Source: Steroidobacteraceae bacterium (lineage in GTDB: Bacteria; Pseudomonadota; Gammaproteobacteria; Steroidobacterales; Steroidobacteraceae). Taken from it: 64,000 nt of DNA. This document shows positions 13,565 to 36,111 of this stretch, in pieces. The position numbers and the translations under genes were made by a program. The stretch is taken from the NCBI GenBank assembly GCA_019187185.1, contig JABAQU010000015.1, positions 105,665 to 169,664 of the forward strand, given 5' to 3'. Position 1 is the first letter of the stretch. Each line of letters opens with the position of its first letter. Below the pieces are notes generated by a model. That model did not search any database and was not told where the DNA came from. It was given only the letters and a program-made list of their open reading frames with translations.

Positions 13565-14662
13565 ATGAGCGGACCCTTACATACACCTCTGTGCGACAAG
13601 CTCGGCATCGAGTATCCCGTCGTTGCCTTCACGCATTGCAAGGACGTCGCGGTTGCCGTGATCAACGCGGGCGGCTTTTCCGTGCTCGGCGAAGCCCTGC
13701 ATTCGCCCGATCACATTGCTGCGGACATCAAATGGATCCGCGATCGGGTCGGCGGCAAACCGTTCGGCATCGATCTCGTGCTGCCGGCGTCGGTTCCGGA
13801 GGAGCGCACTGTCGAGCAGCTGCTCGCGGAGATTCCGCAGACGCACCGCGATTTCGAGCAGCAGATCAAGCGCAAGTACAACGTGCCCGACCCGAAGGAA
13901 GCGCCGAACATCCACATCTGGGGCGGCCTCGACCAGAAGCGCGCACTCGCGCAGGTGGAGGTCGTGTTCGACGAACGCGTCCCGGTATTCGCCTCGGGCC
14001 TCGGCTCGCCGGCATTCCTGCTGAAGCGCGCCCACCAGCTCGGCATGCAGGTGTGGGGGCTGGTCGGCAAGCCGCGCCAGGCGAAGAAGCAGATCGACGC
14101 GGGCACGGACGTGATCATTGCGCAGGGGTACGACGCGGCGGGTCACACGGGCAACATCGGCACGTTCTCGATCGTCCCGCAGATCGCCGACGCGGCACGC
14201 GCGGCCGGCGTTCCCGTGCTCGCGGCCGGTGGCGTGACCACGGGGCGGCATCTCGCGGCCGCGCTCGCGCTCGGCGCGGACGGCGTATGGACCGGTTCAT
14301 TGTGGCTGGCCTCGCGCGAGTCCGACGTCAATCTGCCGCTGAAGGAGCGGCTGCTCGAGGCCGAGACCGACGACACGGTGTACTCGGACTGCATCTCGGG
14401 CTACACGATGCGCACGACGCGCAGCCCCTGGCACGACGAATGGCTGAGCCCGGAAGCGCCGCCGGTCCTGAAGCCGCCGCTGCAGATGATGCTGTCGGCC
14501 AACTACATCCAGGGGTCGCTCGACTACCAGCGGAAGGACCTGATGACCGAAGCGGCGGGGCAGGGCATCCACTACGTGACCGAGATGAAGCCGGCGCGCC
14601 AGATCCTCTCCGATCTGGTCGATGAGGCACTCGATGTCTTCGAACGCTTCGCCTCCGCCTGA
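13565..14662 (+). CDS. nitronate monooxygenase / FabK-family FMN-dependent oxidoreductase
   Basis: 365 aa. LGIEYPVVAFTH, GIDLVLP, IIAQGYDAAGHTG, LAAGGVTTGRHLAAALALGADGVWTGS. Confidence 0.85.
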   Translation: MSGPLHTPLCDKLGIEYPVVAFTHCKDVAVAVINAGGFSVLGEALHSPDHIAADIKWIRDRVGGKPFGIDLVLPASVPEERTVEQLLAEIPQTHRDFEQQIKRKYNVPDPKEAPNIHIWGGLDQKRALAQVEVVFDERVPVFASGLGSPAFLLKRAHQLGMQVWGLVGKPRQAKKQIDAGTDVIIAQGYDAAGHTGNIGTFSIVPQIADAARAAGVPVLAAGGVTTGRHLAAALALGADGVWTGSLWLASRESDVNLPLKERLLEAETDDTVYSDCISGYTMRTTRSPWHDEWLSPEAPPVLKPPLQMMLSANYIQGSLDYQRKDLMTEAAGQGIHYVTEMKPARQILSDLVDEALDVFERFASA

Positions 14663-14933
14663 GCGGGCCGCACCGGATTTCCGGACCCGGGACGGCTTCG
14701 ACGCCGCAATGCAGGGTCGCCGGGCCGAGTGCGACGGTGGCAAGGCCATCGAGGGCACGCATTTCGCGGGTCGCCAGCAGTTCGCGGGCACCCTGACGGG
14801 GCAATATCGCGATTTCGGTGACTACCCGTGGCGCTGGTATCTCATGACGGATCTCACGCACAAGCCGGAAGGCTATGCGCACGAGGCTGTCTGGTGCGAC
14901 GCCGGCAGCCTGGATTTCGAAGGCAAAGAATGA
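14622..14933 (+). CDS. small hypothetical protein (74-103 aa depending on start)
   Basis: Third-codon positions are mostly G/C, as in neighbouring genes. Amino-acid composition is normal (DYPWRWYLMTDLTHKPEGYAHEAVWCD). Stop lies 4 nt before etfB. Alternative starts at 14634 and 14709. I recognise no family. Confidence 0.4.
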   Translation: MRHSMSSNASPPPERAAPDFRTRDGFDAAMQGRRAECDGGKAIEGTHFAGRQQFAGTLTGQYRDFGDYPWRWYLMTDLTHKPEGYAHEAVWCDAGSLDFEGKE

Positions 14934-14937
14934 ACCC

Positions 14938-15735
14938 ATGCGCATCGTAGTCTGTGTAAAGGAAGTGCTCGACCCGAACGCCGTCAACAACCTGGCGCTC
15001 GCGGGCAAGCTGAGGATCGGCGCCGACGGGCGCACGCTCGACGTGGCGAGTGTGCCGCGGCTGATCAATGGCTATGACGAGCAGGGCATGGAAGTCGCGC
15101 TGCGCATCCGTGATGCGGGGGTCGAGTGCCGGATCGCCGTCGTGTCGATCGGCGGGGACCAGCAGGCCGTGCTGCGGCATTGCGCGGCGCTCGGCGCGGA
15201 CGAAATCGTCGCGATCGATCCGGCCGGGGCCGAACTCGACTGCGAAGCGGTGGCGAAGCTGCTCGCGGCCTGGATCAAGGGCAGTGGCGGCGCAGATCTC
15301 GTCCTCTGCGGGCGCCAGGCGTCCGACGACGACCAGGGCGTCGTGCCGGTGTTGCTCGCGGAAAAACTCGGCCTGCCCGCCGTGCTGTTTGCGCGCGCGG
15401 TCGAAGTGTCGGGCACGAGCCTGCGCGTGACGCGCGTGACGAGCGACGGCGACGAGGTCGTGCAGGGCGCGATGCCCGCGCTCGTGACCGTGAGCAACGA
15501 AGTGGGTGTGCCGCGTTTCCCGACGGCCAAGTCCAAGATGGCCGCGCGCAAGATGGCGCCGGTTGCGGTCACGGCCGCCTCGCTCGGCCTCTCGGCGGGA
15601 GATCTCGCGCCGACGGTCGCGCTGGTGAAGCAGCAACTCCCGGTGGTCGCCGGCAACTGCGAGTTCCTGCAGGGCTCGGCGCCCGAGGTGGCGCAAACGC
15701 TGATTGCGCGCCTGCGCGCCGACGGCGTGATCTGA
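14938..15735 (+). CDS. etfB: electron transfer flavoprotein beta subunit
   Basis: 265 aa from ATG 14938. MRIVVCVKEVLDP, LVLCGRQASDDDQGVVPVLLAEKLGLP. Confidence 0.9.
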   Translation: MRIVVCVKEVLDPNAVNNLALAGKLRIGADGRTLDVASVPRLINGYDEQGMEVALRIRDAGVECRIAVVSIGGDQQAVLRHCAALGADEIVAIDPAGAELDCEAVAKLLAAWIKGSGGADLVLCGRQASDDDQGVVPVLLAEKLGLPAVLFARAVEVSGTSLRVTRVTSDGDEVVQGAMPALVTVSNEVGVPRFPTAKSKMAARKMAPVAVTAASLGLSAGDLAPTVALVKQQLPVVAGNCEFLQGSAPEVAQTLIARLRADGVI

Positions 15736-15742
15736 GGCCCGC

Positions 15743-16363
15743 ATGGCGATCGAGCTCAGGCAGACCTTCGAAGTGCGGGCGCCGATCGATGCGGTCTGGG
15801 CATTCATGCTGAATCCCGAGAACGTCGTCGCCTGCATGCCAGGGGCATCGCTGACGCAAATCGTCGACGAGCGGAGCTTTGTCGGCGCGGTGAAGGTCAA
15901 GGTCGGTGCGGTCAGCGCGCAGTACCAGGGGACGATCACCTACGCGGAGACGGACCGCGCGGCCGGCATCGTGAAATTGCTGGCCGAAGGCAAGGAACGG
16001 GGTGGCGGGACCGTGCGGGGCACGATCACGAGCCGGCTCACGAGCATCGCAGGCGGAGCGGCCACGAGCGTCGAGACGAGCTCGAGCATCGACCTCACCG
16101 GCAAGATCGCGCAGGTCGGTCGCGGGATGATCGAAGGTGTCTCGGGCCAGATCATCAAGATGTACGTCAACAACGTGCGCGCGATGCTCGAACCTGCGGC
16201 GAGCGCTGCGGCCGGCGCGGGCACGGCTCCGGGCAGCGTGCCTGGCGCGTCGCCTGCACCGCCACCGGCCCGCCAGGAATCGATCAACATCGTTGCCGTC
16301 GTCCTGAAGACGCTGTGGGAGGGCCTCAAGGGCTTTTTCAGGCGCCTCTTCGGTCGCGCGTAG
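15743..16363 (+). CDS. CoxG-like SRPBCC-fold protein with Ala/Pro-rich linker and C-terminal amphipathic helix
   Basis: 206 aa. FEVRAPIDAVWAFMLNPENVVACMPG...GKIAQVGRGMIEGVSGQIIKMYVNNV is CoxG-like. The tail reads AAAGAGTAPGSVPGASPAPPPA followed by INIVAVVLKTLWEGLKGFFRRLFGRA. Confidence 0.8.
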   Translation: MAIELRQTFEVRAPIDAVWAFMLNPENVVACMPGASLTQIVDERSFVGAVKVKVGAVSAQYQGTITYAETDRAAGIVKLLAEGKERGGGTVRGTITSRLTSIAGGAATSVETSSSIDLTGKIAQVGRGMIEGVSGQIIKMYVNNVRAMLEPAASAAAGAGTAPGSVPGASPAPPPARQESINIVAVVLKTLWEGLKGFFRRLFGRA

Positions 16364-16372
16364 AGGGGCTTC

Positions 16373-17332
16373 ATGAGCGTAGTCGTCTGCAGTTGGGGAA
16401 ACACGGTCGAACGCGGCACCGAGGAAGTGCTCACGGCGGCGCGCGCCTACAGTGTCGCCGCGGGGCTGCCATTGCGATGGGTGGTCGCGGGAACCGACTG
16501 CGAGGCCGTGCGTGGGTTGGCTGCGCGCTACGGGGTTGCGGCGGTGGACCTCATCAGCCACCCGAAGCTGGCCGGCTATGGCCCCGACGCGCTGACAGAG
16601 GCGCTTGCCCGTTATTTCGCGCAGGTGCAGGCGGCTGCCGTCCTCCTGAACCAGACGGCGGAATCGCGCCTCGTGGCGCCGCGTCTCGCGACGCGACTGG
16701 GCGGCGCCGTGGTGACGAACGTGTTTGCGCTGCGACACGAGGGGGGGGCTCTGCACGTGTCGGCGACGGCCTATGGCGGCGATACTCATGCAACCTACCG
16801 CATGCCTGCGAAGAACAGCATCGTGTGCGTCGCCACGACGACGCTCGCAGCCGAGCATGCCGCCGCGCCGACCGAGCCGCAGTGCAACCCGGTCGATGTC
16901 GACCTGGGTGCCGTCGAGGAGCGCTTCAAGGTCACCGCTGCGCCCAAGGCGGAGGGGCCGCGCCTCGAGGATGCGGAAATCATCGTCGGCGGCGGTCGCG
17001 GCCTCGGCAAGGCGGACAATCTCGGCCTGATCAGGGACCTCGCCGCGGCCCTCGGCGGCATGTGGGGCGGCTCCCGCCTGCTCGTCGACGACGGCTGGAT
17101 CGACGCGTCGCGACAGATCGGCCTCACGGGCAAGATCACGCGGCCGCGCCTGTACGTCGCGGCCGGCATTTCCGGCGCGAGCCAGCACATGGCCGGTTGC
17201 TCGGCCGCGAAAACGATCGTTGCGATCAACAAGGACCGGGACGCGGCCATTTTCCGCTACGCGCGCTTTGGCATCGTCGGTGATTGCCTCGAAGTGATAC
17301 CGGAACTCATCAAGGCAGCCCGTGGTGGCTGA
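16373..17332 (+). CDS. etfA: electron transfer flavoprotein alpha subunit
   Basis: 319 aa. C-terminal FAD-binding signature YVAAGISGASQHMAGCSAAKTIVAINKDRDAAIFRYARFGIVGD. Confidence 0.9.
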   Translation: MSVVVCSWGNTVERGTEEVLTAARAYSVAAGLPLRWVVAGTDCEAVRGLAARYGVAAVDLISHPKLAGYGPDALTEALARYFAQVQAAAVLLNQTAESRLVAPRLATRLGGAVVTNVFALRHEGGALHVSATAYGGDTHATYRMPAKNSIVCVATTTLAAEHAAAPTEPQCNPVDVDLGAVEERFKVTAAPKAEGPRLEDAEIIVGGGRGLGKADNLGLIRDLAAALGGMWGGSRLLVDDGWIDASRQIGLTGKITRPRLYVAAGISGASQHMAGCSAAKTIVAINKDRDAAIFRYARFGIVGDCLEVIPELIKAARGG

Positions 17333-17759
17333 CGGAGAAACGCCAGTGGTCGAATCCTCCCAACCGTGTGTACCGGGCCTGTTCGCCGCCGACGGTGGCG
17401 CGCGGGTCCTCGGGTCGCGCTGCACTGCCTGCGGCACACCGTATTTCCCGAAGGCGGCGAGTTGTCACAACCCGAAATGCCCGGGCTCGAAGATGGAGCC
17501 CTGCGAATTCGGCGGCCGGGGCAAGGTGTGGAGCTATTCGGTCGCGGATTTCCCGCCGCCGCCGCCCCACAAGCACGACAAGCCGTTCAAGCCGTATGCG
17601 ATCGCCGTGGTCGATCTCGACAGCGGCCTGCGGCTCGTCGGGCAGATGGTCGATCCGCCGTCGGCCATGAGCGTCGGCGCGGCGGTCGAACTGGTCGTCG
17701 ACACGCTCTACCACGAGGAAGGCAAGGCCTTCACGACGTGGAAATTCAAGCTGGCCTGA
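17322..17759 (+). CDS. DUF35 OB-fold / zinc-ribbon protein (thiolase partner)
   Basis: Zinc-ribbon Cys pairs CTACGTPYFP...CHNPKC, followed by the OB fold (KVWSYSV...YAIAVVDLDSGLRLVG). An alternative GTG at 17346 has GGAG 8 nt upstream and would give 137 aa. Confidence 0.85.
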   Translation: MVADGETPVVESSQPCVPGLFAADGGARVLGSRCTACGTPYFPKAASCHNPKCPGSKMEPCEFGGRGKVWSYSVADFPPPPPHKHDKPFKPYAIAVVDLDSGLRLVGQMVDPPSAMSVGAAVELVVDTLYHEEGKAFTTWKFKLA

Positions 17760-17779: not shown

Positions 17780-18973
17780 ATGCAGGATGTCGCAGTACTG
17801 GGCGTGGGACTCCACCGTTTCGGCAAGACCGGCGACGATGTCGTCGGCAACAAGTCCGTGACGGAACTGTGCCGGCACGCGGTGGACAAGGCGCTCGAGG
17901 ACGCCGGCGTGTCCTGGCGTCAGATCGAGGCTGTTGCCGCCGCGAGCTCGCGCTTCTCGGGCGGCAAGGGCTGGGGACTGAACGGCAACGACGTCGTCGA
18001 GGACATCGGGTCGACGGGCATCCCGGTCTTCAACATGTCCGCGGGCTGCGCCGCCGGCGGGAACGCATTCAATGTCGGCTATTCGCTGGTGGCGGGCGGG
18101 ATGTACGACCTCGTGCTCGTCGTCGGGGGCGAGGTGATGCCGAAGGGCATGATCCAGACCTCGGGCGTCGAGGAAGCCACGGACCCGGAATTCCTGCGCC
18201 AGCGCTGCATCGGCTTTCCCGGGCCGTCATTCTGGGCAACGCTCGCGCGCCGCCGCATGCACGATTACGGCACCACCGAGGAGCAGTTCGCGAGCGTCAC
18301 GGTGAAGGCCCGCAAGTGCTCCGTCGGCAATCCGTATGCACGCTTCCAGAAGGAGATCACGCTCGCCGACGTGCTGGCGTCCCCCTACGTCAGCAATCCG
18401 TTGCGCCTGTTCGAGATCTGTCCGGTGTCGAACGGTGCGGCTGCGGCGGTCATCTGCTCCAAGCGCAAGGCCCGCGAGTTCACGAAGAAGCCCGTCTGGG
18501 TCGCTTCGAGCGCCGTGGCGACGTTGACCTTCGAGGATTCGCTGCCGCGCGGCCTCGCGGGCCCGGTCCCGAGCGGCCCGAGTTTTCACACGGAGGTGAA
18601 GGGTGCAGTCACGCGTGCGTTCGAGCGGGCCGGCATCGGTCCGAAGGACGTGAGCTTCACGGAGCTGCAGGACAACACCTGCTACTACGAGCTCGCATTT
18701 CCGGAGGAATGGGGGCTCTGCGAACCCGGGGAGTCCGAGCGGCTGGTTGCGGCCGGCGAGACGACCCCGACCGGGCGCATGCCGATCAATCCGTCGGGCG
18801 GCTTCGTGTCGTTCGGTGAAGCGACGACCGCCATGGGCGTGTTCCAGATCGCGGAAGTCACCTGGCAGCTGCGAGGCCAGTCGGGTGCCCGGCAGGTACC
18901 CGGCGCGAAGGTCGGTCTCGCACAGACGAATGGACTGGGCGGCAACGCGACGGCAGCCATCCTGAAACGCTGA
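17780..18973 (+). CDS. SCP-x-type thiolase-like protein (DUF35-associated)
   Basis: 397 aa. The nucleophile-position Cys is present (FNMSAGCAAGGNAF, compare INVNNNCATGSTAL of SCP2 thiolases). C-terminal INPSGGFVSFGEATTAMG. Confidence 0.85.
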   Translation: MQDVAVLGVGLHRFGKTGDDVVGNKSVTELCRHAVDKALEDAGVSWRQIEAVAAASSRFSGGKGWGLNGNDVVEDIGSTGIPVFNMSAGCAAGGNAFNVGYSLVAGGMYDLVLVVGGEVMPKGMIQTSGVEEATDPEFLRQRCIGFPGPSFWATLARRRMHDYGTTEEQFASVTVKARKCSVGNPYARFQKEITLADVLASPYVSNPLRLFEICPVSNGAAAAVICSKRKAREFTKKPVWVASSAVATLTFEDSLPRGLAGPVPSGPSFHTEVKGAVTRAFERAGIGPKDVSFTELQDNTCYYELAFPEEWGLCEPGESERLVAAGETTPTGRMPINPSGGFVSFGEATTAMGVFQIAEVTWQLRGQSGARQVPGAKVGLAQTNGLGGNATAAILKR

Positions 18974-28957: not shown

Positions 28958-29788
28958 ATGACCGACGAACTCAAGACCCTGCGTTACGCCCTCGAGGACA
29001 ACGTCGGGATCATCACGCTGAATCGTCCGGAGAAGCTGAATGCCGCGAGCTGGCAGCTGGCTGAGGAGCTGTCTGGGCTGCTGTACCGGCTGCGCTTCGA
29101 CGACTCGGTGCGTGCGATCGTGCTCACCGGCGCGGGCCGCGCCTTCTGCGCGGGGGGCGACGTGGAGTTCATTTCGGGCGAGGGTGAGCACGCGATGCCC
29201 GGTACGTCGGATGCGTCGCGTCCGATTCCGCGCTGGCAGAGGAAGACGCCGGGCGGCTACTTCTTCGACGTGGCGCGGCAGCTGATCGCGGTCGACAAGC
29301 CGGTGATCGCGGCGATCCACGGCCACGCGGTCGGCGCCGGCCTCGCCTTTGCGCTCGCCTGCGACCGGCGCTTCGGCGACACGACGACAAAAATGAGCGC
29401 GATCTTCACGAGCATCGGCGTGGCGCCCGACTGCGGCCTGTCGTATTTCCTGCCGCGCATCGTCGGCATCCCGAAGGCGCTGATGATGGTCGAGACGGCA
29501 CGGATCTTCAAGGCGGAGGAGTGCCGCGAACTCGGACTGATCGACGAACTCGTGCCGGAAGGCAAGAGCCTCGAGACGGCGCTCGAGTACGCGAAGATGA
29601 TCGCGAAGCGGGCGAGCACCGCGGTGGAGATGGGACGTCGGCTGATCCACATGTCGCTGCAGCACAACCTCGAGCAGATGCTCGATTACGAAGGACACTA
29701 TGGCGTGGCAGTGGCCTCCACGGCCGACGCCAAGGAAGGCACGATGGCCTTCCTCGAGAAGCGCAAGCCCCAGTTCCGGGGCACCTGA
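28958..29788 (+). CDS. enoyl-CoA hydratase/isomerase (crotonase)
   Basis: 276 aa. GIITLNRPEKLNA, FCAGGDV, VIAAIHGHAVGAGLAFALACD, EGTMAFLEKRKPQFRG. Confidence 0.9.
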   Translation: MTDELKTLRYALEDNVGIITLNRPEKLNAASWQLAEELSGLLYRLRFDDSVRAIVLTGAGRAFCAGGDVEFISGEGEHAMPGTSDASRPIPRWQRKTPGGYFFDVARQLIAVDKPVIAAIHGHAVGAGLAFALACDRRFGDTTTKMSAIFTSIGVAPDCGLSYFLPRIVGIPKALMMVETARIFKAEECRELGLIDELVPEGKSLETALEYAKMIAKRASTAVEMGRRLIHMSLQHNLEQMLDYEGHYGVAVASTADAKEGTMAFLEKRKPQFRGT

Positions 29789-29811: not shown

Positions 29812-31074
29812 ATGCCTGCGAGAAAAGCACCTGCCACGCCGCTCGAGGGTCTGCGCGTCCTCGACGTGTCGACGATGCTGGCGGGACCCTATGGAGCGAC
29901 GCTGCTCGGCGATCTCGGCGCGGACGTCATCAAGGTCGAATCGCACCTGGGCGACGACAGCCGCCGGCTCGGTGCAATGCGGGATGGCGAATGCGGACCG
30001 TTCCTCAGCCTGAATCGCAACAAGCGCGCGGTCGTGATCGACATGCAGCAGCCGCAGGGCCAGGACGTCTTCGCACGCCTCGTGGCGACGACCGACGTGC
30101 TGATCACGAACGTGCGCGAGCCGGCGCTCAGCAAGCTCGGGCTGAACTACGATCAGGTGCGCGCACACCGCCCGGACATCGTGTGGATCGGCGTCACGGC
30201 CTTCGGGCCCGACGGGCCCTACGCAGGACGACCCGGAATCGACTTCCTGACGCAGGGCTACTGCGGGGTGCTCGGGTTGAACGGCGATCCCAAGGGCGGG
30301 CCCGTGCGCACCGGCTTCCCGGCCGTCGACGTGATCACCTCGCTCCTCGTCAGCAATGCCGCGCTCGCGGCGCTGCGGGTCCGCGACCGCACGGGCGAGG
30401 GCCAGCGCATCGAGGTATCGCTGCTGGATGCGCTGATGCACGCGCAGGCGAGCTCCATCGGCAGCTATCTCGCGACCGGCGAGCCCCCGAAGCGGACCGG
30501 CAACCGCAGCCAGTATTTCGCGCCATCGGGCGTCTATCCGACGAAGGATGGCCGCTTCGTGATCATCACGACGCCGAGCGAGAAATTCTTCGGCCATGTC
30601 TGCCGCGCGCTCGATGCCGACTGGGACCGCGATCCGCGGTTCCACGACATCGCGTCACGCCTCGCGAATCACGACGAGCTGGATCGCGTGATGTCCGAAC
30701 GCACGCGCCAGTTCGACCGGGACGAACTCGTCGAGCGCCTGATCGCCGCCGACGTGCTCACCGCGCCGATCAACGACGTCGAAGACGTCGTGAAGGACCC
30801 GCAGATCCGGCACAACCGGATGATCGTGCGCCTCGAGCATCCGTTGCTCGGCCATGTCGACGTCACGGGCGTGCCGATCCGTTTCTACGGCACGCCGTGC
30901 AGTGTCACGAAGCATCCGCCGATGCAGGGCGAGCACACGCGCGAACTGCTCGCGAGCCTCGGCTACGGCGAAGCGGAAGTCGAGCGGTTGATCACGGCCG
31001 GCGTGACAGCCGACCGGCCGGAGATGTTGCGCCGGCGCGCGGAGAAAAAGGCGCGCCGACAGCCCGCCGGGTAG
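29812..31074 (+). CDS. family III (CaiB/BaiF) CoA-transferase
   Basis: 420 aa from ATG 29812. LRVLDVSTMLAGPYGATLLGDLGADVIKVES, FGPDGPYAGRPGID. Confidence 0.9.
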   Translation: MPARKAPATPLEGLRVLDVSTMLAGPYGATLLGDLGADVIKVESHLGDDSRRLGAMRDGECGPFLSLNRNKRAVVIDMQQPQGQDVFARLVATTDVLITNVREPALSKLGLNYDQVRAHRPDIVWIGVTAFGPDGPYAGRPGIDFLTQGYCGVLGLNGDPKGGPVRTGFPAVDVITSLLVSNAALAALRVRDRTGEGQRIEVSLLDALMHAQASSIGSYLATGEPPKRTGNRSQYFAPSGVYPTKDGRFVIITTPSEKFFGHVCRALDADWDRDPRFHDIASRLANHDELDRVMSERTRQFDRDELVERLIAADVLTAPINDVEDVVKDPQIRHNRMIVRLEHPLLGHVDVTGVPIRFYGTPCSVTKHPPMQGEHTRELLASLGYGEAEVERLITAGVTADRPEMLRRRAEKKARRQPAG

Positions 31075-31183: not shown

Positions 31184-32368
31184 ATGGGTCGCATCCTCCA
31201 TGACGTGACAGTGCTCGATCTGACCCGGCAATTCTGCACCGCGCTGTCTGGTGCGTTCCTGGCGGACTTCGGCGCACGCGTCATTCGTGTCGATCTGCTG
31301 CCGAGCGCCGGGCCCGAGCCGACCGGCCGCTGGAACCACGAAGCGGACCTGATCCACCGCAACAAGCTGTCGGTCGCGATCAACGCGAGCACCCCACGAG
31401 GTCGCGAGGTGTTCGCGGCGCTCGCGGCCAAGGTCGACGTGATCCTCACCGACTGGCAGCGCGATGAACTCGCCGCACTCGGAGTCGACTACGCCAAAGT
31501 GAGCGGCACGCGCCCCGATGTCATCTTCGCGCGCCTCTCGGGCTTCGGGCCCAAGGGTCCGGACCAGGACCTGCCGGTCATCGACGAACTCGCGGCAGCG
31601 CGCACGGGCGCAATGCCCATCCTGCCGCAACCAGGCCAGCCCCCCGTGTACACCGGCGCCGGCGCGATGCACGCCACCGGGATGCTGGCGTTCGGCATTC
31701 TCACCGCGCTCCTGCACCGGATGCAGAGCGGCGAGGGGCAGGAGGTCGATGTCTCGCTCTTTGGCGCGAACATGTACAGCTCGGCGCTCGACCTGCAGGC
31801 ATTCCTGGCCATAGGCCACGGCGATCGCCTGCTGAATCCGATCTCGCGGCTCGATGTGTCGAACCCGATGTCGGGTTCCGTCTACCGCAGCGCCGACGGC
31901 CGCTGGGTCACGCTGACGATGCCCGACACCGATCGCTGGTGGCCGGCCTTTTCCGCGATGGTCGGCCTCGATGCGAACGACGCCCGGTTCGATACGCACG
32001 AGAAGCGCACGGCCGTGAATCGCCTGGCGCTCATCGGCGAGCTCGAGGAGCGCTTCAGCCGCCGGCCCGCCGGCGAGTGGCGCCGGATGTTCCAGGAAAA
32101 GCAGCTCTCGGCCGACATCATCGAGCAGTTCGACTATCCGGCGCACGATCCGGCCGCGTATGCCAACCGCTATATCATGGAGCTCGATCATCCGAGCTTC
32201 GGCAAGGTGAAGACCCTCGGCTTCCCGATCTGGGCGAGTGACAGCCCGGCCCGGCTCGAGAGTCTCGCGCCGTGCGCCGGGCAGCACACGGACCAGGTAC
32301 TGCACGAGCTGCTCGGCTATTCGCGCGAGACGCTGCACGAACTCGTCGATGCGGGAGTACTGGCATGA
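31184..32368 (+). CDS. family III (CaiB/BaiF) CoA-transferase
   Basis: 394 aa. VTVLDLTRQFCTALSGAFLADFGARVIRVD, SGFGPKGPDQDLPVID. Confidence 0.85.
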   Translation: MGRILHDVTVLDLTRQFCTALSGAFLADFGARVIRVDLLPSAGPEPTGRWNHEADLIHRNKLSVAINASTPRGREVFAALAAKVDVILTDWQRDELAALGVDYAKVSGTRPDVIFARLSGFGPKGPDQDLPVIDELAAARTGAMPILPQPGQPPVYTGAGAMHATGMLAFGILTALLHRMQSGEGQEVDVSLFGANMYSSALDLQAFLAIGHGDRLLNPISRLDVSNPMSGSVYRSADGRWVTLTMPDTDRWWPAFSAMVGLDANDARFDTHEKRTAVNRLALIGELEERFSRRPAGEWRRMFQEKQLSADIIEQFDYPAHDPAAYANRYIMELDHPSFGKVKTLGFPIWASDSPARLESLAPCAGQHTDQVLHELLGYSRETLHELVDAGVLA

Positions 32369-33573
32369 GCAAGGCGCTCGAGGGCGTTCGCGTCATCGAT
32401 CTCACGGTGTGGTTCCAGGGGCCGGTATCCGCCCAGTACCTCGCGGACTTCGGCGCCGACGTCATCAAGGTGGAGCGGCCGCAGGGCGGGGACCAGGCGC
32501 GGGGAGTGCGCAGCATCAAGTCGCTCGAGATCGGCGACTGGAATCAGTACTTCCTCGTCATCAACCGCAACAAGAAGAGCATCGCGATCGACCTGAAGAA
32601 GCCGGAGGGGCAGGAGATCCTGTACCGGCTCGTCGAGAAATCGGATGTCTTCCTGAGCAACCTCGCGCCGGAGATGCTCGCGGCCTGGAACCTGACGTAC
32701 GAGAAGCTGTCCTCGATCAATCCGAAGCTCGTGTACGCGACGAACACGGGCTACGGCCGGTTCAGCAAGGTCTCGAAGCCCTCGTTCGACATGACGGTGC
32801 AGGCACTCACCGGGATCATGGCGCGCCTCGGCGAGCCGGGGCAGCCGCCGATCTACCTGGGCATGGGTTCGGGCGACGCGTACGGTGGCATCATGTCGGC
32901 GCTCGGCATACTGCTCGCGCTGTACGAGTGCCGGCGCACCGGCAAGGGACAGAGCATCGACGCGTCGCTTTATGGCGCGCAGCTGTATCTCGCCGCGCCG
33001 CATCTGCAGGCCTACCTCGCCGGCCACGAATCGAGCGCGCTGCAGCACTCGCGCCGGCAGGTGGAGAATCCGCTGTGGAACCTGTACCCGACGAGCGGCA
33101 AATGGGTCTTTCTCTGCGAACGCAATGAGGACGCGCGGTTTGCGGCGCTGTGCCGCGCGCTGCGCAATCCCGCGGCACTGGCTGATCCACGCTTCGGCAG
33201 CACGGCGCGCCGCCGCGAGAACAACGAGGCACTGATCGCCGCGATCGAGGGCGAGACGCTGAAGTACGGTCACGCGGAACTGATGAAGGCGCTGCAGGGC
33301 GCGGGCATCACCGCGAGTCCCGTGAACAATTTCGCCGACGTCATACGCGACGAGCAGGCGTGGCAGAACGCGTACTTCATGAAGACCTGGTGCGAGGAAG
33401 TGCAGCGCGAGGTCGAGATCCGCGGCCTGCCCGTCACGCTGTCGAAGTCGCCGGGCGAGGTACACAGCCTCGGACCGCAGCTCGGCCAGGACACCGAAAT
33501 CCTGATGATGGATCTGCTCGGCTACGAATGGGAGCAGATCGAGGCGCTCAAGGCGAAGGGCGCGATTCCCTGA
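32365..33573 (+). CDS. family III (CaiB/BaiF) CoA-transferase
   Basis: 402 aa from ATG 32365, with ATGA overlap. VRVIDLTVWFQGPVSAQYLADFGADVIKVERP, TGYGRFSKVSKPSFD. Confidence 0.9.
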   Translation: MSKALEGVRVIDLTVWFQGPVSAQYLADFGADVIKVERPQGGDQARGVRSIKSLEIGDWNQYFLVINRNKKSIAIDLKKPEGQEILYRLVEKSDVFLSNLAPEMLAAWNLTYEKLSSINPKLVYATNTGYGRFSKVSKPSFDMTVQALTGIMARLGEPGQPPIYLGMGSGDAYGGIMSALGILLALYECRRTGKGQSIDASLYGAQLYLAAPHLQAYLAGHESSALQHSRRQVENPLWNLYPTSGKWVFLCERNEDARFAALCRALRNPAALADPRFGSTARRRENNEALIAAIEGETLKYGHAELMKALQGAGITASPVNNFADVIRDEQAWQNAYFMKTWCEEVQREVEIRGLPVTLSKSPGEVHSLGPQLGQDTEILMMDLLGYEWEQIEALKAKGAIP

Positions 33574-33595
33574 GCCGATGCAAGAGGTGAAACCC

Positions 33596-34507
33596 ATGAG
33601 TCAATCCAGGTTCAGCGACTGGAGCGCCGTCAGCGGCGACGGTCTCGACGACTTCAAGGAAATCGTCTACGAGAAGCGCCATCACAGGACGCTCGGCGGC
33701 GGTGTTGCGCGCATCGCGATCGACAAGCCCGACAAGATGAACGCGATGACGCTCGCGACGGTGGACGAGATGTTTCGCGCGTTCTATGACGCGAGCCACG
33801 ACCCGTCGATCGGCGTCATCGTGGTCGCGGGCCGCGGCAAGCACTTCGGCGCCGGCGGCGACGTCGTCTGGGAACGTTGGGGCCTGCGCGAGGGCTTCTA
33901 CAACCGCTATCCGCACAACCGGCTGGTCCGCATGTCCCGCAAGCCCGTGATCGCGCAGGTGCAGGGCTACTGCGTCGGCGGCCACAACCACATGGCCTAC
34001 TGCTGTGATTTCACGATCGCGGCCGACAACGCCGTGTTCGCGCAGGCCGGCCCGCGCGTGTCCTCGCCGGCCGACGGCTACTTCGTGCCCTACCTGACCA
34101 AGGTGGTGGGCGCCAAGAGGGCGCGCGAGATCTGGATGCTGTGCCGCAAGTACAAGGCCGCGGATGCGCTCGCGATGGGGCTCGTCAATGCCGTGGTGCC
34201 GCTCGCCGATCTCGAGGCTGAAGTCGAGAAGTGGTGCGAGGAGCTGCTCGAGAAGAGCCCCGGGTGCCTCGAGATCCTGAAGGCCGCATTCGACCAGGAA
34301 CTCGACGGCTACAAGGAGCCGTGCGCCATTTCGGCGGCGCTGTACCCGGACTGGTTCGACATGCCGGAGGGCAAGGAGGGTGGCGCGGCGTTCGTCGAGA
34401 AGCGCCCGGCCCGCTTCTGGGATATCCGCTTGCGCGAGGCACAGATGCGCCAGACGCTGCTCGAGGAATACGAAGCCCTGCAGCAGTCGGGCAAGGCGGC
34501 CGGGTAA
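33596..34507 (+). CDS. MenB/BadI-like crotonase-fold protein (candidate C-C bond-cleaving or ring-cleaving acyl-CoA hydrolase)
   Basis: 303 aa from ATG 33596, with GAGGTG 7 nt upstream; the ORF-track start is 33578. [56 protein letters not shown] closely parallels MenB [56 protein letters not shown] as I recall it. Confidence 0.85.
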   Translation: [303 protein letters not shown]

Positions 34508-34525
34508 TCGGGGAGCGCGCCTGCT

Positions 34526-35707
34526 GTGAACACCTTGATGGACGCAGCCTGCATCGTCGGCATCGGCCAGACGGCGGTCTGCCGCAAACCGGGGTCGGGC
34601 CTCAGCCAGATGGCGCTGCAGCTGAAGGCGGTGGCGGCCGCGCTCGAAGACGCCGGCCTCACGGCCCGCGACATCGACGGCATCATGCCGTTTCCCAATC
34701 TCGGCCGCGCCGAGGCTTTCGCCGCGAGTCTCGGTTGCGAGAACCTGCGTTTCGCCGCGACGCTGAACCTCGGCGGCGCGGCGCCGGTGGCGGCGCTGCG
34801 CGTGGCGGCGATGGCGGTCGCGACCGGCAGCGCGAACCATGTGCTCGTGCCCGGCGGCTGGAACGGCTATTCCGGGGCACGGACGCGCGAGATTGCCGCC
34901 ACCGACTCCGAGTCGATCCCCGGCGCCGCGATCGCGCGCGACTACTACCTGCCCTACGGCCTGTCGGCGCCCCCGCAATGGTACGCATTGATGGCGCAGC
35001 GGCACATGCAGGAGTACGGCACGCGCAGCGAGCAGCTCGGAGCGGTGGCGATCGCGATGCGAAGACACGCACAGCTGAATCCCGACGCATTGATGCACGG
35101 CAAGCCGATGACGATGGATGACTACCTCGACTCGCCGATGATCAGCGCGCCGTACCGCCTGCTCGACTGCTGCCTCGAGACCGACGGCGCGGCCGCCTTC
35201 ATCGTCACCTCGACCGAGCGGGCACGCGACCTGCGCGGGCGGGCGGTGTCGATCATGGGCGCCGCATCGGGCCAGCCCTATCCGGCCGACGACATCTTCA
35301 ATCGCAAGGACTTCCATCGCATCGGCCTCACGACCGCGGCGCCGGAGGCCTTCGCGATGGCAGGCGTGACACCGGCCGAGGTGGACTTCGCACAGATCTA
35401 CGACTGCTTTACGTTCGAGGTGATCCAGCAGATCGAGGAGGCCGGCTTCTGCCGGCGCGGAGAGGGCGGGGCGTTCGTCGAGAACGGCGGCATCGAACTC
35501 GGCGGCCGGCTGCCCGTCAACACGCACGGTGGCCTCCTGTCCCAGGCTCATCTCCTCGGGCTCGGTCACGTGGTGGAGGCCGTGCGCCAGTTGCGCGGCG
35601 AGGCGGGCGAACGCCAGGTGAAGAACGCGCAGATCGGCGTCGTCACGGGCTGGGGCGATTTCGGTGACGGCAGCATCGCGATCCTCTGCCGCGGAGAGCA
35701 ACGATGA
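34526..35707 (+). CDS. thiolase-fold protein lacking the nucleophile Cys (Ltp2/aldolase-like), DUF35-associated
   Basis: 393 aa. GTG start, with ATG alternative at 34538. The nucleophile position reads TLNLGGAAPVAAL, with Gly where thiolases have Cys. C-terminal VNTHGGLLSQAHLLGLGH. Confidence 0.8.
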   Translation: MNTLMDAACIVGIGQTAVCRKPGSGLSQMALQLKAVAAALEDAGLTARDIDGIMPFPNLGRAEAFAASLGCENLRFAATLNLGGAAPVAALRVAAMAVATGSANHVLVPGGWNGYSGARTREIAATDSESIPGAAIARDYYLPYGLSAPPQWYALMAQRHMQEYGTRSEQLGAVAIAMRRHAQLNPDALMHGKPMTMDDYLDSPMISAPYRLLDCCLETDGAAAFIVTSTERARDLRGRAVSIMGAASGQPYPADDIFNRKDFHRIGLTTAAPEAFAMAGVTPAEVDFAQIYDCFTFEVIQQIEEAGFCRRGEGGAFVENGGIELGGRLPVNTHGGLLSQAHLLGLGHVVEAVRQLRGEAGERQVKNAQIGVVTGWGDFGDGSIAILCRGEQR

Positions 35708-36111
35708 CGCGTCCCCTGCCGGCGATGACCGGCCTGACGGCACAGTTCTATGAATGGTGCAGCCGCGGCGAACTGCGCTTCCAGCGCTGCAGCCGCTGCG
35801 CCACGTTCCGCCATGTGCCGCGCGACCTGTGTGCCGAGTGCGGCTCGTTCGACTGGGAATGGGCGCGCTCGAGTGGCAACGGCACGGTGTTCACGTACAC
35901 CATCGTCGCCCGCGCACTGCATCCGGGCTTTGCCGACGCGGTTCCGTATGCGGCCGCCGTCATCGAACTCGCCGAGGGGGTGCGCATCCTCGGGAACATC
36001 GTCGACTGCCCACCCGGGGAACTGCGCATCGGCATGCCCGTGCGCGTCGATTTCGAGCGTCAATCCGACGCGGTCACGCTGCCGGTCTTTCGCCGCGCCC
36101 TCACCACCTGA
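35704..36111 (+). CDS. DUF35 OB-fold / zinc-ribbon protein
   Basis: 135 aa. ATGA overlap with the thiolase-like gene. CSRCATFRHVPRDLCAECGS zinc ribbon followed by the OB fold (GTVFTYTIV...YAAAVIELAEGVRILG). Confidence 0.85.
   Translation: MTRPLPAMTGLTAQFYEWCSRGELRFQRCSRCATFRHVPRDLCAECGSFDWEWARSSGNGTVFTYTIVARALHPGFADAVPYAAAVIELAEGVRILGNIVDCPPGELRIGMPVRVDFERQSDAVTLPVFRRALTT

Follow-up and report, generated by a model that had tools for sequence, protein, structure and literature searches.

The 2,3-seco pathway is used by denitrifying bacteria on steroid hormones. Its published ring-A route calls for enzymes that are said to be encoded in the SRAH/1-TDH clusters but have no gene assigned to them: CoA ligase or transferase, acyl-CoA dehydrogenase, acetate-releasing hydrolase, hydratase and aldolase. 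Beta-oxidation-like genes in these clusters had already been noted by those who characterized SRAH, the steroid ring-A hydrolase (WP_154715975.1). B9N43_01910-01920 have been named 1-testosterone hydratase/dehydrogenase genes in two papers, and in the Sterolibacterium denitrificans cluster acd3 the gene order is AtcABC, two unknown genes, EtfB and a further unknown gene. This order matches that of the Mo enzyme, NMO, small ORF, EtfB and CoxG genes of the locus described here.

The locus, from an uncultured Steroidobacteraceae bacterium, contains a 23-gene array that is likely (probability roughly 0.8, as judged from sequence comparison) to encode the CoA-thioester steps of steroid (androgen) degradation by the oxygen-independent 2,3-seco pathway. 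Orthology and synteny show that the array belongs with the genes associated with this pathway, a set already known from cultured steroid degraders. We infer a function within the pathway, and the steps proposed for individual genes below are those suggested by homology and gene context.

Organization of the array

Across positions 13508-36111 of the window (the whole 64,000-nt stretch of DNA analysed; G+C 68%), GC3 frame analysis found coding frames on the + strand only, the sole antisense exception being a 96-aa shadow frame within the first acyl-CoA dehydrogenase gene. The 23 co-directional genes of the initial annotation (Table 1) are borne out by these frames and by domain content, and the five 4-nt ATGA overlaps (at 24242, 24763, 26452, 32365 and 35704) and the largest gaps (131 nt ahead of 21895, 109 nt ahead of 31184) are exactly as described. 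An overlap had also been noted at the small ORF, which indeed overlaps the end of the NMO gene by 41 nt (start 14622) or 29 nt (start 14634), and at the etfA/DUF35 junction, where the choice of start codon decides: the overlap is 11 nt with GTG 17322 and absent with GTG 17346. EtfB may start at 14938 instead of 14875.

Every domain named initially was recovered by Pfam, which identified NMO, ETF beta, COXG, ETF alpha and CCG/4Fe-4S proteins, three crotonases, two acyl-CoA dehydrogenases, six family III CoA-transferases, a FAS1_DH/MaoC hotdog pair, two thiolase folds and two DUF35 proteins (zf-ChsH2 plus OB_ChsH2_C). In the NCBIfam search no array protein reached an equivalog cutoff, so every step assignment is one of family-level similarity and context.

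At least seven further Steroidobacteraceae genomes have the same 23-gene order, with protein identities of 70-97%; such conservation is the best demonstration that the array is non-random. All of the loci closest to the array are from this family, and the gene 22 product has a 100% identical counterpart in a Steroidobacteraceae metagenome-assembled genome. The array consists of three joined modules that are separate or reordered in Betaproteobacteria, the module junctions coinciding exactly with the two largest intergenic gaps.

Table 1. Genes of the array and of its surroundings in the window.
Feature	Product	Coordinates	Strand	Basis
01	NMO/FabK-like FMN enoyl reductase	13565..14662	+	Pfam NMO 8.6e-50
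02	Small conserved ORF, 99-103 aa	14634..14933 (alternative start 14622)	+	Codon-position substitution pattern
03	Electron transfer flavoprotein beta subunit (EtfB)	14938..15735	+	Pfam ETF 4.5e-25
04	CoxG/SRPBCC protein, between etfB and etfA	15743..16363	+	Pfam COXG 5.4e-18
05	Electron transfer flavoprotein alpha subunit (EtfA)	16373..17332	+	Pfam ETF_alpha 7.4e-31, ETF
06 (DUF35a)	Stand-alone DUF35, zinc ribbon + OB fold	17322..17759 (alternative start 17346)	+	OB_ChsH2_C 1.2e-15, zf-ChsH2
07	SCP2-type thiolase	17780..18973	+	PDB SCP2-thiolase type 1, 8.9e-57
08	Membrane Fe-S oxidoreductase, EtfD/EMO-like architecture	19024..20967	+	Two CCG domains + 4Fe-4S dicluster
09	Crotonase ECH1, canonical hydratase type	20984..21763	+	Both catalytic Glu positions occupied
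10	Acyl-CoA dehydrogenase ACAD1, large-subunit type	21895..23076	+	Pfam ACAD N/M/C domains
11	CaiB1, alpha-methylacyl-CoA-racemase-like family III protein	23085..24245	+	PDB MCR 1x74
12	Hotdog subunit HotA (FAS1_DH_region)	24242..24766	+	Pfam 1.2e-09; ATGA overlap each side
13	Hotdog subunit HotB (MaoC), ChsH1/ChsH2-like	24763..25245	+	PDB ChsH1/ChsH2
14	Acyl-CoA dehydrogenase ACAD2, small-subunit type	25292..26455	+	pimD_small
15	CaiB2, family III CoA-transferase	26452..27669	+	Pfam CoA_transf_3 4e-101
16	CaiB3, family III CoA-transferase	27695..28915	+	Pfam 1.4e-94
17	Crotonase ECH2	28958..29788	+	Pfam ECH_1 1.2e-52
18	CaiB4, family III CoA-transferase	29812..31074	+	Pfam 4.8e-117
19	CaiB5, family III homologue	31184..32368	+	Pfam 1.4e-67
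20	CaiB6, family III CoA-transferase	32365..33573	+	Pfam 1.4e-105
21	Crotonase ECH3, MenB/BadI-like	33578..34507	+	NCBIfam, PDB MenB
22	Thiolase-fold retro-aldolase candidate, Ltp2/Sal family	34526..35707	+	PDB Ltp2
23 (DUF35b)	Stand-alone DUF35 partner of gene 22	35704..36111	+	OB_ChsH2_C 1.9e-24, zf-ChsH2; ATGA overlap
Flank	Xanthine-oxidase-family Mo enzyme, three subunits, AtcABC/1-TDH-like	9492..13514	-	Pfam, NCBIfam
	FAD subunit	12462-13514	-
	Fe-S subunit	11945-12466	-
	Moco subunit	9492-11909	-
Flank	Convergent operon npdG/Amidohydrolase_2/CaiB/DUF2889	36955..40760	-	Pfam
	npdG	40068-40760	-
	SRAH-like Amidohydrolase_2	38942-39922	-
	Seventh CaiB	37708-38961	-
	DUF2889	36955-37704	-
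Flank	Luciferase-like oxidoreductase	8505..9377	+	Pfam Bac_luciferase 1.5e-37
	Second luciferase-like gene	1683-2573
	AMP-forming ligase	6993-8504

Synteny with anaerobic steroid degraders

Most array genes have one-to-one orthologues (70-88% identity) in Denitratisoma DHT3, Aromatoleum anaerobium, and Sterolibacterium and Rhodocyclaceae genomes, where the same modules adjoin both the AtcABC/1-TDH-like and the SRAH-like markers. In the window, the large subunit of the Mo enzyme is 74% identical to B9N43_01920 of Denitratisoma sp. DHT3, a gene that carries the label atcA (1-testosterone dehydrogenase), and 72% identical to the Thauera terpenica homologue. The SRAH-like protein shares 77-80% identity with Sterolibacterium, Rhodocyclaceae and Denitratisoma homologues, those from Sterolibacterium (38.2-38.6 kDa) having the published size of SRAH; the npdG product of the same operon scores 196 bits, above the NCBIfam cutoff of 150.

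The comparison of gene order was anchored on ACAD2. Denitratisoma sp. DHT3 carries a co-directional run of CaiB5, CaiB6, ECH3, gene 22, DUF35b, ECH1, npdG, SRAH-like, CaiB, ACAD1, CaiB1, HotA, HotB, ACAD2 and DUF2889::CaiB2 (52-83% identity to the array and flank proteins), in which npdG, SRAH, CaiB and the core module thus follow one another in that order. Aromatoleum anaerobium has the same modules together with AtcABC-like genes on one contig, and in metagenome contigs the SRAH-like gene immediately precedes the core module. Gene 22 has orthologues (about 77-80% identity overall; 79-80% in known and predicted anaerobic steroid degraders) in Azoarcus CIB and DN11, Aromatoleum spp., Seongchinamella, Sterolibacterium and both Denitratisoma strains, a set that largely overlaps the genera and strains reported to have SRAH and 1-TDH. 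Paralogous copies of the sub-core ACAD1-CaiB1-HotAB-ACAD2 that lack the other modules are also present in Actinobacteria and elsewhere, so this sub-core is not ring-A-specific.

The array had initially been matched to no characterized cluster and assigned no substrate. Its modules are, however, orthologous to and syntenic with the AtcABC/1-TDH and SRAH neighbourhoods of Denitratisoma sp. DHT3, Aromatoleum anaerobium and Sterolibacterium/Rhodocyclaceae, in which AtcABC and SRAH are the only biochemically characterized members, and the substrates are therefore most likely ring-A/ring-B seco intermediates of androgens. The suggestion of a steroid was thus right, while side-chain or ring C/D degradation and naphthenic or terpenoid acids are probably wrong in view of the marker synteny. 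The resemblance to steroid systems on which it was based is real, in that an igr-like set is present (heteromeric dehydrogenase, heteromeric MaoC hydratase and DUF35-associated aldolase-type thiolase fold). Nor is the array self-contained as had been thought: several conserved partners are encoded beyond its limits, on the opposite strand or upstream (the Mo enzyme, SRAH-like hydrolase, seventh CaiB, DUF2889, F420 reductase, luciferase-like protein and short-chain dehydrogenases), and domain searches found no 3-hydroxyacyl-CoA dehydrogenase within it. The upstream luciferase-like oxidoreductase is probably F420-dependent; in Betaproteobacteria a weak luciferase-like homologue sits inside the core module, between CaiB3 and ECH2 (for example in L012 and L014), with 23-29% identity to this gene and 31-33% to the second luciferase-like gene of the window.

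Gene content of the modules

Gene 01 has FabK as its top NCBIfam match (154 bits, below the cutoff of 453) and FabK enoyl reductases as its top PDB matches, and its orthologues (84-94% identity across Beta- and Gammaproteobacteria) adjoin the Mo enzyme gene. Gene 02, for which Pfam and NCBIfam searches found no family, is a real gene: substitutions relative to seven orthologues number 111, 98 and 243 at codon positions 1, 2 and 3, and seven loci keep it in the place between NMO and etfB (60-76% conserved, Gamma- versus Betaproteobacteria). Its homologues form only 48 representative clusters among 1.84 billion proteins. CoxG is 54-87% conserved across related loci. DUF35a, listed as the partner of the gene 07 thiolase, matches BbsA weakly (37.6 bits versus a cutoff of 250); gene 07 itself matches BbsB in the PDB (3.6e-40), keeps Cys90, the nucleophile, together with an NPSGG motif, and has orthologues conserved at 79-95%. 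Gene 08 has four hydrophobic segments within its first 230 residues, plus a pair of CxxCxxCxxxC motifs, and is presumed to be the ETF:quinone link. ECH1, which follows DUF35b in Denitratisoma and Aromatoleum, has EchA19 as its top NCBIfam match (292 bits versus a cutoff of 400).

The core module (21895-29788) is opened by ACAD1, whose orthologues are 77-95% conserved and whose top NCBIfam match is pimC_large (187 bits, below cutoff); for ACAD2, pimD_small is second best (160.6 bits). CaiB1 matches MCR at 2.6e-60 versus 4e-38 for transferases, and keeps the His126 and Asp156 equivalents. HotA had no match in the PDB sequence search, and the only PDB matches of HotB are ChsH1/ChsH2 (4w78/4wnb, 6e-14). 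CaiB2, in which the catalytic Asp column is filled, is invariably paired with CaiB3 within the core module and is a DUF2889 fusion in Denitratisoma DHT3. ECH2 closes the module; in the alignment it lacks both hydratase glutamates, which ECH1 by contrast has, and its NCBIfam neighbours include alternative oxepin-CoA hydrolase and PaaG. CaiB4 was seen only in gammaproteobacterial versions (L001-L006, L021 and L041).

The third module opens with CaiB5, in which His replaces the catalytic Asp and an AMHAT motif is kept in orthologues; CaiB6, whose start overlaps it, retains the Asp and a conserved GSGDAYGG motif. ECH3 matches MenB (230 bits, cutoff 380; PDB 4.8e-59) and BadI (215 bits, cutoff 467), and again both hydratase glutamates are absent from the alignment. 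The top PDB match of gene 22 is the Ltp2 aldolase 6ok1 (1.8e-75). Its description as a Cys-less thiolase fold holds for the nucleophilic Cys; another Cys is present in the YDCF motif (292-295), which carries the aldolase Tyr, and His occupies the position of Ltp2 Tyr344.

Proposed role in ring-A degradation

By homology to the characterized enzymes, the flanking Mo enzyme would generate the ring-A 1,3-diketone and the SRAH-like hydrolase would open ring A to give the 2,3-seco acid DSAO. The obvious candidate for DSAO activation is the seventh CaiB, beside the SRAH-like gene; the apparent absence of its catalytic Asp counts against it. The AMP-forming ligase of the window is an alternative; a ligase was assumed for this step in one place in published work. 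In the scheme proposed here, family III CoA-transferase homologues would load the seco acids and keep them on CoA. The PimCD-like heteromeric ACAD1/ACAD2 may then desaturate DSA-CoA at C4-C5, electrons passing via EtfAB and the membrane Fe-S oxidoreductase to the quinone pool, and a non-hydratase crotonase, ECH3 as first and ECH2 as second candidate, would split off the C1-C2 acetyl group, released as acetate, in a vinylogous retro-Claisen hydrolysis that yields SDA-CoA. Hydration by the ChsH-like HotA/HotB would give the tertiary alcohol 5-OH-SDA-CoA, which gene 22 with its partner gene 23 is predicted to split by retro-aldol cleavage into acetyl-CoA and the three-ring diketone STA, paralleling how the igr/Ltp2 system deals with the C17 side chain.

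Surplus to this scheme are the thiolase with DUF35a, ECH1, the NMO-like reductase, CaiB1, CaiB2-4, CoxG and the small ORF. It is not obvious what the racemase-like CaiB1 would do with a ring-A acyl chain that is unbranched, and this was counted against the proposed role. More speculatively, the surplus genes might act in ring-B conversion (STA to HIP) and/or shortening of the HIP side chain. For the published ring-A route, the array supplies candidates for the dehydrogenase, acetate-releasing hydrolase, hydratase and aldolase.

Organization of the array

Between 13508 and 36111, in a window of ∼68% G+C throughout, only + strand frames pass when genes are called by third-codon-position G+C (GC3), the exception being a short antisense shadow within the gene for the acyl-CoA dehydrogenase ACAD1. 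The 23 genes of this array encode, in order, an NMO-like reductase, a small protein, EtfB, a CoxG-like protein, EtfA, DUF35a, a thiolase (gene 07), a membrane Fe-S protein, the crotonase ECH1, ACAD1, the family III protein CaiB1, the hotdog proteins HotA and HotB, ACAD2, CaiB2, CaiB3, ECH2, CaiB4 to CaiB6, ECH3, a retro-aldolase candidate (gene 22), and DUF35b, and we consider them, with a probability of roughly 0.8, to be the CoA-thioester part of anaerobic androgen degradation by the 2,3-seco pathway. The parts list of the initial annotation was borne out gene by gene by Pfam, and a start-codon survey reproduced its five ATGA overlaps (at 24242, 24763, 26452, 32365, and 35704) and its two widest gaps, of 131 nt (ahead of 21895) and 109 nt (ahead of 31184). 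The array had also been called self-contained, a description that did not hold, since conserved partners lie on both flanks and no hydroxyacyl-CoA dehydrogenase is encoded within it. No array gene has an equivalog-level match in NCBIfam. A promoter and terminator scan of 13300–33200 gave no signal above shuffled controls, and the operon substructure is therefore drawn only from gap sizes and comparative module boundaries.

Positions of the array, of individual array genes, and of flanking features in the window
Feature	Position	Strand
CofH/MqnC-like radical SAM protein	2–1120	+
Luciferase-like oxidoreductase	1683–2573	+
AMP-forming ligase	6993–8504	
Luciferase-like oxidoreductase	8505–9377	+
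Mo enzyme, AtcABC (1-TDH)-like	9492–13514	−
23-gene array	13565–36111	+
Small ORF	14634–14933	+
CoxG/SRPBCC gene	15743–16363	+
CaiB5	31184–32368	+
Two-GFA-domain protein	36101–36955	−
Convergent operon of the SRAH-like gene	36955–40760	−
DUF2889 protein	36955–37704	−
CaiB beside the SRAH-like gene	37708–38961	−
SRAH-like Amidohydrolase_2 protein	38942–39922	−
npdG	40068–40760	−
ORF with two short-chain-dehydrogenase matches	40309–41736	+
Old yellow enzyme	42977–44242	+
FecI/FecR/FecA-type signaling set with transporter and second receptor	∼44400–52243	
STN-domain TonB-dependent receptor	45682–48555	
MFS transporter	48556–49863	
Second TonB receptor	49901–52243	−
BaiCD-like Fe-S flavoenzyme	53878–56073	+
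Third TonB receptor	59135–62191	

The small ORF (∼99 aa), which lies between the NMO-like gene and etfB, has no family assignment in Pfam or NCBIfam. Orthologues from seven loci are 60–76% identical across Gamma- and Betaproteobacteria and hold a constant position, and comparison with them gives 111, 98, and 243 substitutions at codon positions 1, 2, and 3, respectively, a pattern by which the ORF is judged to be a genuine gene. The family is rare, with 48 representative clusters in 1.84 billion proteins. Also inserted in this stretch, between etfB and etfA, is a CoxG/SRPBCC gene, whose product has a lipid-binding fold and could be a steroid-binding accessory protein; in betaproteobacterial contigs the homologue comes after two further acyl-CoA dehydrogenase genes (locus L080, 6674–7327).

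Flanking genes

Adjacent to the array on the upstream side are genes for a Mo enzyme of the xanthine-oxidase family with separate FAD, 2Fe-2S, and Moco subunits, which resembles AtcABC, the 1-testosterone hydratase/dehydrogenase (1-TDH). The large subunit shares 74% identity with B9N43_01920 of Denitratisoma sp. DHT3 and 72% with the homologue in Thauera terpenica 58Eu. In two papers B9N43_01910–01920 of DHT3 are named as the 1-testosterone hydratase/dehydrogenase AtcABC, and T. terpenica is reported to carry atcABC. Cluster acd3 of Sterolibacterium denitrificans has been described in a review as encoding AtcABC followed by a pair of proteins without a known function, an ETF beta subunit, and one more protein of this kind, which agrees with the order found here of Mo enzyme, NMO-like reductase, small ORF, EtfB, and CoxG.

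Downstream, and convergent with the array, are npdG, a gene for an Amidohydrolase_2 protein, a seventh CaiB gene, and a DUF2889 gene. [quoted passage not shown] The window protein is 77–80% identical to proteins of Sterolibacterium sp., Rhodocyclaceae, and DHT3, those of Sterolibacterium having a mass of 38.2–38.6 kDa against the 38.6 kDa published for SRAH; the accession of the characterized SRAH, WP_154715975.1, is not listed among the cluster members of the window protein. On these similarities the Amidohydrolase_2 protein is very likely an SRAH orthologue.

The convergent operon ends with a gene for a protein of two GFA (glutathione-dependent formaldehyde-activating/CENP-V-like zinc) domains, which was not seen in the betaproteobacterial clusters examined. 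F420-related genes are also found in this gammaproteobacterial steroid cluster: npdG, an NADPH:F420 reductase gene scoring above its NCBIfam cutoff, which adjoins the SRAH-like gene in DHT3 too (locus L086, 12440–13111), together with two luciferase-like oxidoreductase genes and one for a CofH/MqnC-like radical SAM protein. An ORF with two short-chain-dehydrogenase matches partly overlaps the npdG frame on the opposite strand.

Farther downstream lies a FecI/FecR/FecA-type surface signaling set, consisting of an ECF sigma factor, FecR, and an STN-domain TonB-dependent receptor, with an MFS transporter and another TonB receptor encoded next; together with a third receptor this set may form a steroid uptake and sensing system. 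The pathway starts with the delta-4 reduction of androstadienedione, for which the window offers two candidates: a BaiCD-like Fe-S flavoenzyme with old yellow enzyme and pyridine-nucleotide-disulfide reductase domains (404 bits to the bile-acid BaiCD model, below its cutoff) and an old yellow enzyme encoded elsewhere. A protein with weak homology to the BaiCD-like flavoenzyme (31% identity) precedes one of the array modules, the third module described below, in Aromatoleum anaerobium (locus L085, 4366–6363).

Modular structure and distribution

An exact-sequence search with ECH3 gave no match, and gene 22 has a counterpart of 100% identity on a 308-kb contig of a Steroidobacteraceae metagenome-assembled genome. 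In a homologue scan with ACAD2 as the query and one genome per species, matches were found in Steroidobacteraceae genomes at 82–92% identity, in Sterolibacterium, Rhodocyclaceae, Aromatoleum anaerobium, and Rubrivivax at 66–73%, and in a deltaproteobacterial genome and Microthrixaceae/Acidimicrobiales at 53–62%. Comparison of all window proteins with the fetched loci by tblastn located genes 01–23 in full order in seven Steroidobacteraceae genomes, at 70–97% identity. In Betaproteobacteria the array genes are split into three modules. The core module contains ACAD1, CaiB1, HotA, HotB, ACAD2, (DUF2889), CaiB2, CaiB3, (luciferase-like), and ECH2; the ETF module, mostly divergent from the core, contains NMO, small ORF, EtfB, CoxG and/or EtfA, DUF35a, thiolase, and Fe-S protein; and the third module contains CaiB5, CaiB6, ECH3, gene 22, DUF35b, and ECH1. 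The 131-nt and 109-nt gaps of the window array coincide exactly with the junctions of these modules, which indicates that the array is a concatenation of the three.

Synteny with the beta-oxidation-like genes around SRAH and 1-TDH was found in DHT3 (L086), in Aromatoleum anaerobium (loci L014 and L085), and in Sterolibacterium and Rhodocyclaceae genomes. In DHT3, a cultured degrader of estrogens and androgens (CP020914, 1.755–1.776 Mb), the third module, npdG, the Amidohydrolase_2 gene, a CaiB gene, and the core form one co-directional run. On a single contig of Aromatoleum anaerobium, ∼13 kb separate the third module from the core, and the Mo enzyme genes adjoin the core. Orthologues of gene 22 at 77–80% identity are present in Aromatoleum spp., Azoarcus CIB and DN11, both Denitratisoma strains, Seongchinamella, and Sterolibacterium, and these genomes largely match the published list of SRAH/1-TDH carriers.

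Known 2,3-seco clusters (acd3 of S. denitrificans and the SRAH/1-TDH clusters of Steroidobacter denitrificans, DHT3, Thauera sp. GDN1, Azoarcus CIB and DN11, and Aromatoleum) share with the window AtcABC and, very likely, SRAH as markers beside the array, orthologous modules at 52–88% identity, the gene order from the Mo enzyme to CoxG, and the order of npdG, the SRAH or SRAH-like gene, and CaiB. The window differs in that all three modules are joined in a single co-directional array of 23 genes with the SRAH operon convergent on the opposite strand, that CaiB4, found only in gammaproteobacterial versions among the loci examined, has been added, and that the DUF2889 and luciferase-like genes are displaced from the core. 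In these clusters only AtcABC and SRAH have been characterized, the other genes being described merely as "putative genes."

Orthologues in Gamma- and Betaproteobacteria (loci L012, L014, and L086) are unusually alike, at 84–88% identity for the NMO-like protein and 79–88% for ACAD1, the thiolase, and gene 22. This high identity, with a module order that differs between the classes, points to lateral exchange of modules between the two. Second, paralogous copies of the sub-core (ACAD1-CaiB1-HotA-HotB-ACAD2) were also noted (L009 versus L001, both from genome BF4_110; L007/L045; L035, L037, L039, L047, and L048): some are present in the same Steroidobacteraceae genomes at ∼75% identity, and lone sub-cores without the other modules occur in Microthrixaceae/Acidimicrobiales and a deltaproteobacterial genome at 53–66% identity, which indicates that the sub-core has been reused for other substrates. 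The gene call for DHT3 (L086, 20652–21164) is a single protein of 673 aa in which DUF2889 is fused to CaiB2, which suggests that the DUF2889 protein of the window works together with CaiB2.

The array might instead degrade an alicyclic, terpenoid, or aromatic-derived acid (e.g., naphthenic acids or benzylsuccinate-like compounds) with the steroid genes as mere neighbors, given that all of its domains belong to generic beta-oxidation families and that Aromatoleum and Azoarcus are degraders of aromatic compounds. Its many family III transferases, DUF35–thiolase pair, and ETF with a membrane Fe-S oxidoreductase recall bbs-type operons for benzylsuccinate beta-oxidation (Thauera, Aromatoleum; weak BbsA/B as well as BbsE/F matches), which also share an acyl-CoA dehydrogenase and a crotonase with the array. 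The bbs systems have two-subunit family III CoA-transferases and likewise depend on an ETF and a membrane Fe-S ETF:quinone oxidoreductase. However, Bbs similarity is low and far under the cutoffs (BbsA 37.6 against 250, BbsB 162 against 750), on which account a bbs operon was rejected, and the array lacks a BbsCD-type dehydrogenase and adds an aldolase beside the thiolase, as well as hotdog hydratases. SRAH, moreover, is reported to be inactive on simple cyclic diketones, and carriers of gene 22 are largely those of SRAH and 1-TDH. Linkage to AtcABC-like and SRAH-like genes has been kept across two proteobacterial classes despite rearrangement, which makes a non-steroid substrate very unlikely.

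Proposed roles in ring-A degradation

The ring-A route drawn from metabolites in the 2025 SRAH paper runs through successive seco-steroid intermediates, from DSAO to DSA-CoA, DSA-4-en-CoA, and, with hydrolytic loss of acetate, SDA-CoA; hydration of the latter yields 5-OH-SDA-CoA, and aldol cleavage then yields acetyl-CoA and the three-ring diketone STA. In that paper five ring-A enzymes were unidentified, candidate genes were placed within the SRAH/1-TDH clusters, and ring-B degradation, from STA to the later rings C/D intermediate HIP, was unknown.

ACAD1 and ACAD2, which are always co-located in the compared loci, could constitute a heteromeric DSA-CoA dehydrogenase. They resemble the two subunits of pimeloyl-CoA dehydrogenase: ACAD1 has pimC_large as its best model (187 bits), and for ACAD2 pimD_small ranks second (161 bits), each score being far below its cutoff. 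Electrons would pass to EtfAB and on to the membrane Fe-S protein, encoded three genes after etfA, whose four hydrophobic segments, two CxxCxxCxxxC (4Fe-4S) motifs, and two CCG domains give it, on predicted features, an EtfD/EMO architecture.

HotA (174 aa, FAS1_DH_region) and HotB (160 aa, MaoC) are encoded by translationally coupled genes joined by ATGA overlaps. In the PDB, HotB matches only ChsH1/ChsH2 (6e-14) and HotA has no sequence match; a DUF35 domain is absent from both, DUF35 being encoded separately. The pair would be the natural hydratase for an enoyl-CoA with a ring carbon as the beta-carbon, and since the product of this hydration is a tertiary alcohol that cannot be oxidized, a retro-aldolase would be required. 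The candidate is gene 22, closest in the PDB to Ltp2 aldolase (1.8e-75). It has Gly/Ala (NLGGAAP) where gene 07 has Cys90, so that the thiolase nucleophile is lost, and it aligns with the Cys-less Ltp2. Its YDCF motif (residues 292–295) aligns with Y294DHF of TcLtp2, retaining the catalytic Tyr. The catalytic Tyr motifs of such aldolases are YDHF in Ltp2 and YDCY in Sal (PMC12329534), and the Cys of YDCF makes the motif of gene 22 Sal/SLP-like. At the position of the second catalytic Tyr of Ltp2, Tyr344, gene 22 has His, and so by its active site it is not Ltp2-type, although Ltp2 is its best overall match. The stand-alone DUF35b gene overlaps the gene 22 stop codon by 4 nt, a pairing that is kept in DHT3 and Aromatoleum, and the two products together would carry out aldol cleavage of 5-OH-SDA-CoA.

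Acetate release is assigned provisionally to ECH3, with ECH2 as the other candidate. Both are without the two hydratase glutamates, which ECH1 has. The crotonase oxyanion hole could stabilize the dienolate formed upon hydrolysis of the C1–C10 bond of DSA-4-en-CoA, and ECH3 is favored because its gene directly precedes that of the aldolase in every genome. Among models and structures it scores best against the subgroup of 2-ketocyclohexanecarboxyl-CoA hydrolase (BadI) and 1,4-dihydroxy-2-naphthoyl-CoA synthase (MenB), which likewise lack the hydratase glutamates, but it falls below both equivalog cutoffs (MenB 230.6 against 380, BadI 215.5 against 467.6) and has N- and C-terminal extensions (309 aa); by these scores ECH3 is classed as a relative of the subgroup and a member of neither equivalog. 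The reaction proposed here, in which an enoyl-CoA is stripped of an acetyl group at its gamma-carbon, is not a known activity of the subgroup.

Gene 07, by contrast with gene 22, has both Cys90 and an NPSGG motif and, with DUF35a, probably acts as a genuine thiolase. The array was not accepted as an ordinary operon for fatty-acid beta-oxidation, since it is without a hydroxyacyl-CoA dehydrogenase, has an aldolase where a second thiolase would be expected, and shows linkage to AtcABC and SRAH.

Family III proteins

CaiB1 matches the α-methylacyl-CoA racemase structure 1x74 (MCR) at 2.6e-60, against 4e-38 for transferases, and its GHD motif and the Asp of "VADSAGGG" align with H126 and D156, the catalytic pair in the numbering of the Mycobacterium tuberculosis MCR. 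By sequence it is racemase-like. In an alignment of the seven window paralogues alone (22–35% identity) the catalytic Asp column holds Asp in CaiB1, 2, 3, 4, and 6, whereas CaiB5 has His and the CaiB beside the SRAH-like gene has Asn, both kept in orthologues. If this alignment is right, the latter two may be non-catalytic partners of heteromers or have another activity, in which case a different CaiB or the AMP-forming ligase at 6993–8504 may be what activates DSAO.

Comparison with side-chain degradation

The igr operon for the cholesterol side chain in Actinobacteria (ChsE1-ChsE2, ChsH1-ChsH2, Ltp2-DUF35) and the proteobacterial Shy-Sal system follow the logic proposed for the array, namely a heteromeric dehydrogenase, a heteromeric MaoC hydratase producing a non-oxidizable tertiary alcohol, and a thiolase-fold retro-aldolase held by DUF35. 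In the array, however, DUF35 is a separate gene and not a hydratase domain, the aldolase motif (YDCF with His) combines Sal/SLP and Ltp2 traits, the unit includes an inserted gene for a racemase-like protein, and the presumed substrate is the C3–C4 remnant of ring A on C5 instead of the C17 side chain. The array would be an analog of an igr/Ltp2-type system, applied to a ring-A remnant.

The same likeness could mean that the array acts on the C17 side chain of sterols or bile acids and not on the opened A/B rings. The closest characterized homologues of several of its parts are Ltp2 aldolase, ChsH1/ChsH2, and α-methylacyl-CoA racemase (with both catalytic residues), EchA19 is the best model for ECH1, and copies of the sub-core occur in Actinobacteria. 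Against this, the orthologous modules adjoin SRAH and AtcABC and not genes for steroid C25 dehydrogenase or side-chain ligases, in Sterolibacterium the aldolases, hydratases, and dehydrogenases for the side chain are encoded in clusters apart, and gene 22 has YDCF with His where Ltp2 has YDHF with a Tyr pair. Modules are also found in Aromatoleum and Azoarcus strains, and SRAH/1-TDH-carrying Aromatoleum and Thauera have been reported to be without side-chain Mo hydroxylases and concluded to be androgen-only degraders. A C17 side-chain system was rejected on the latter grounds, and we regard it as improbable.

Ring B and the HIP pathway

Genes beyond the five ring-A steps (those for the NMO-like reductase, the small protein, CoxG, the thiolase with DUF35a, ECH1/ECH2, CaiB1, CaiB2–4, and the Asp-less family III paralogues) might serve an oxygen-independent opening of ring B, from STA to HIP, by undescribed chemistry, and ECH3 might be a new kind of C–C hydrolase that takes an acetyl group off the gamma-carbon of an enoyl-CoA (a vinylogous retro-Claisen reaction). 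This extended scheme is put forward tentatively, and we lean somewhat against it.

Some features would fit the common HIP pathway for rings C and D: the HIP cluster of Sterolibacterium includes an annotated pair of DUF35 and SCP2-thiolase genes, one of the array crotonases is of the ring-hydrolase type, and the NMO-family reductase recalls IpdC of the HIP pathway in Mycobacterium. The markers of a HIP cluster were not found among the window genes, however, as no IpdAB-type (family I) CoA-transferase is encoded anywhere in the window and its sole AMP-forming ligase reaches 237 bits with the FadD3 model, for which the cutoff is 657; a HIP cluster was rejected for the lack of these two. The HIP genes of DHT3 (B9N43_4420–4465) should, by the order of locus tags, lie far from the array orthologues at 1.75–1.78 Mb, and adjacency to ring-A enzymes favors earlier steps. 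A role of the array in ring C and D degradation is therefore very improbable.

Implications for anaerobic steroid degradation

Steroid hormones persist in anoxic sediments and wastewater, and to our knowledge the 2,3-seco pathway is the only oxygen-independent route for degradation of the steroid nucleus. The array belongs to a 2,3-seco gene set already seen, though not functionally dissected, in cultured degraders. Since the same genes are visible in those strains, the gain is a sharper hypothesis and a wider distribution and not a new system; what is new is the fused 23-gene arrangement, the extra CaiB4, and the occurrence in uncultured Steroidobacteraceae. The window supplies a compact and strongly conserved list of candidates with a concrete gene-to-step hypothesis for the five ring-A steps and for ring-B chemistry, and the set helps in choosing marker genes for environmental monitoring beyond atcA and SRAH. 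Uncultured members of the Steroidobacteraceae carry this whole set in a single array.
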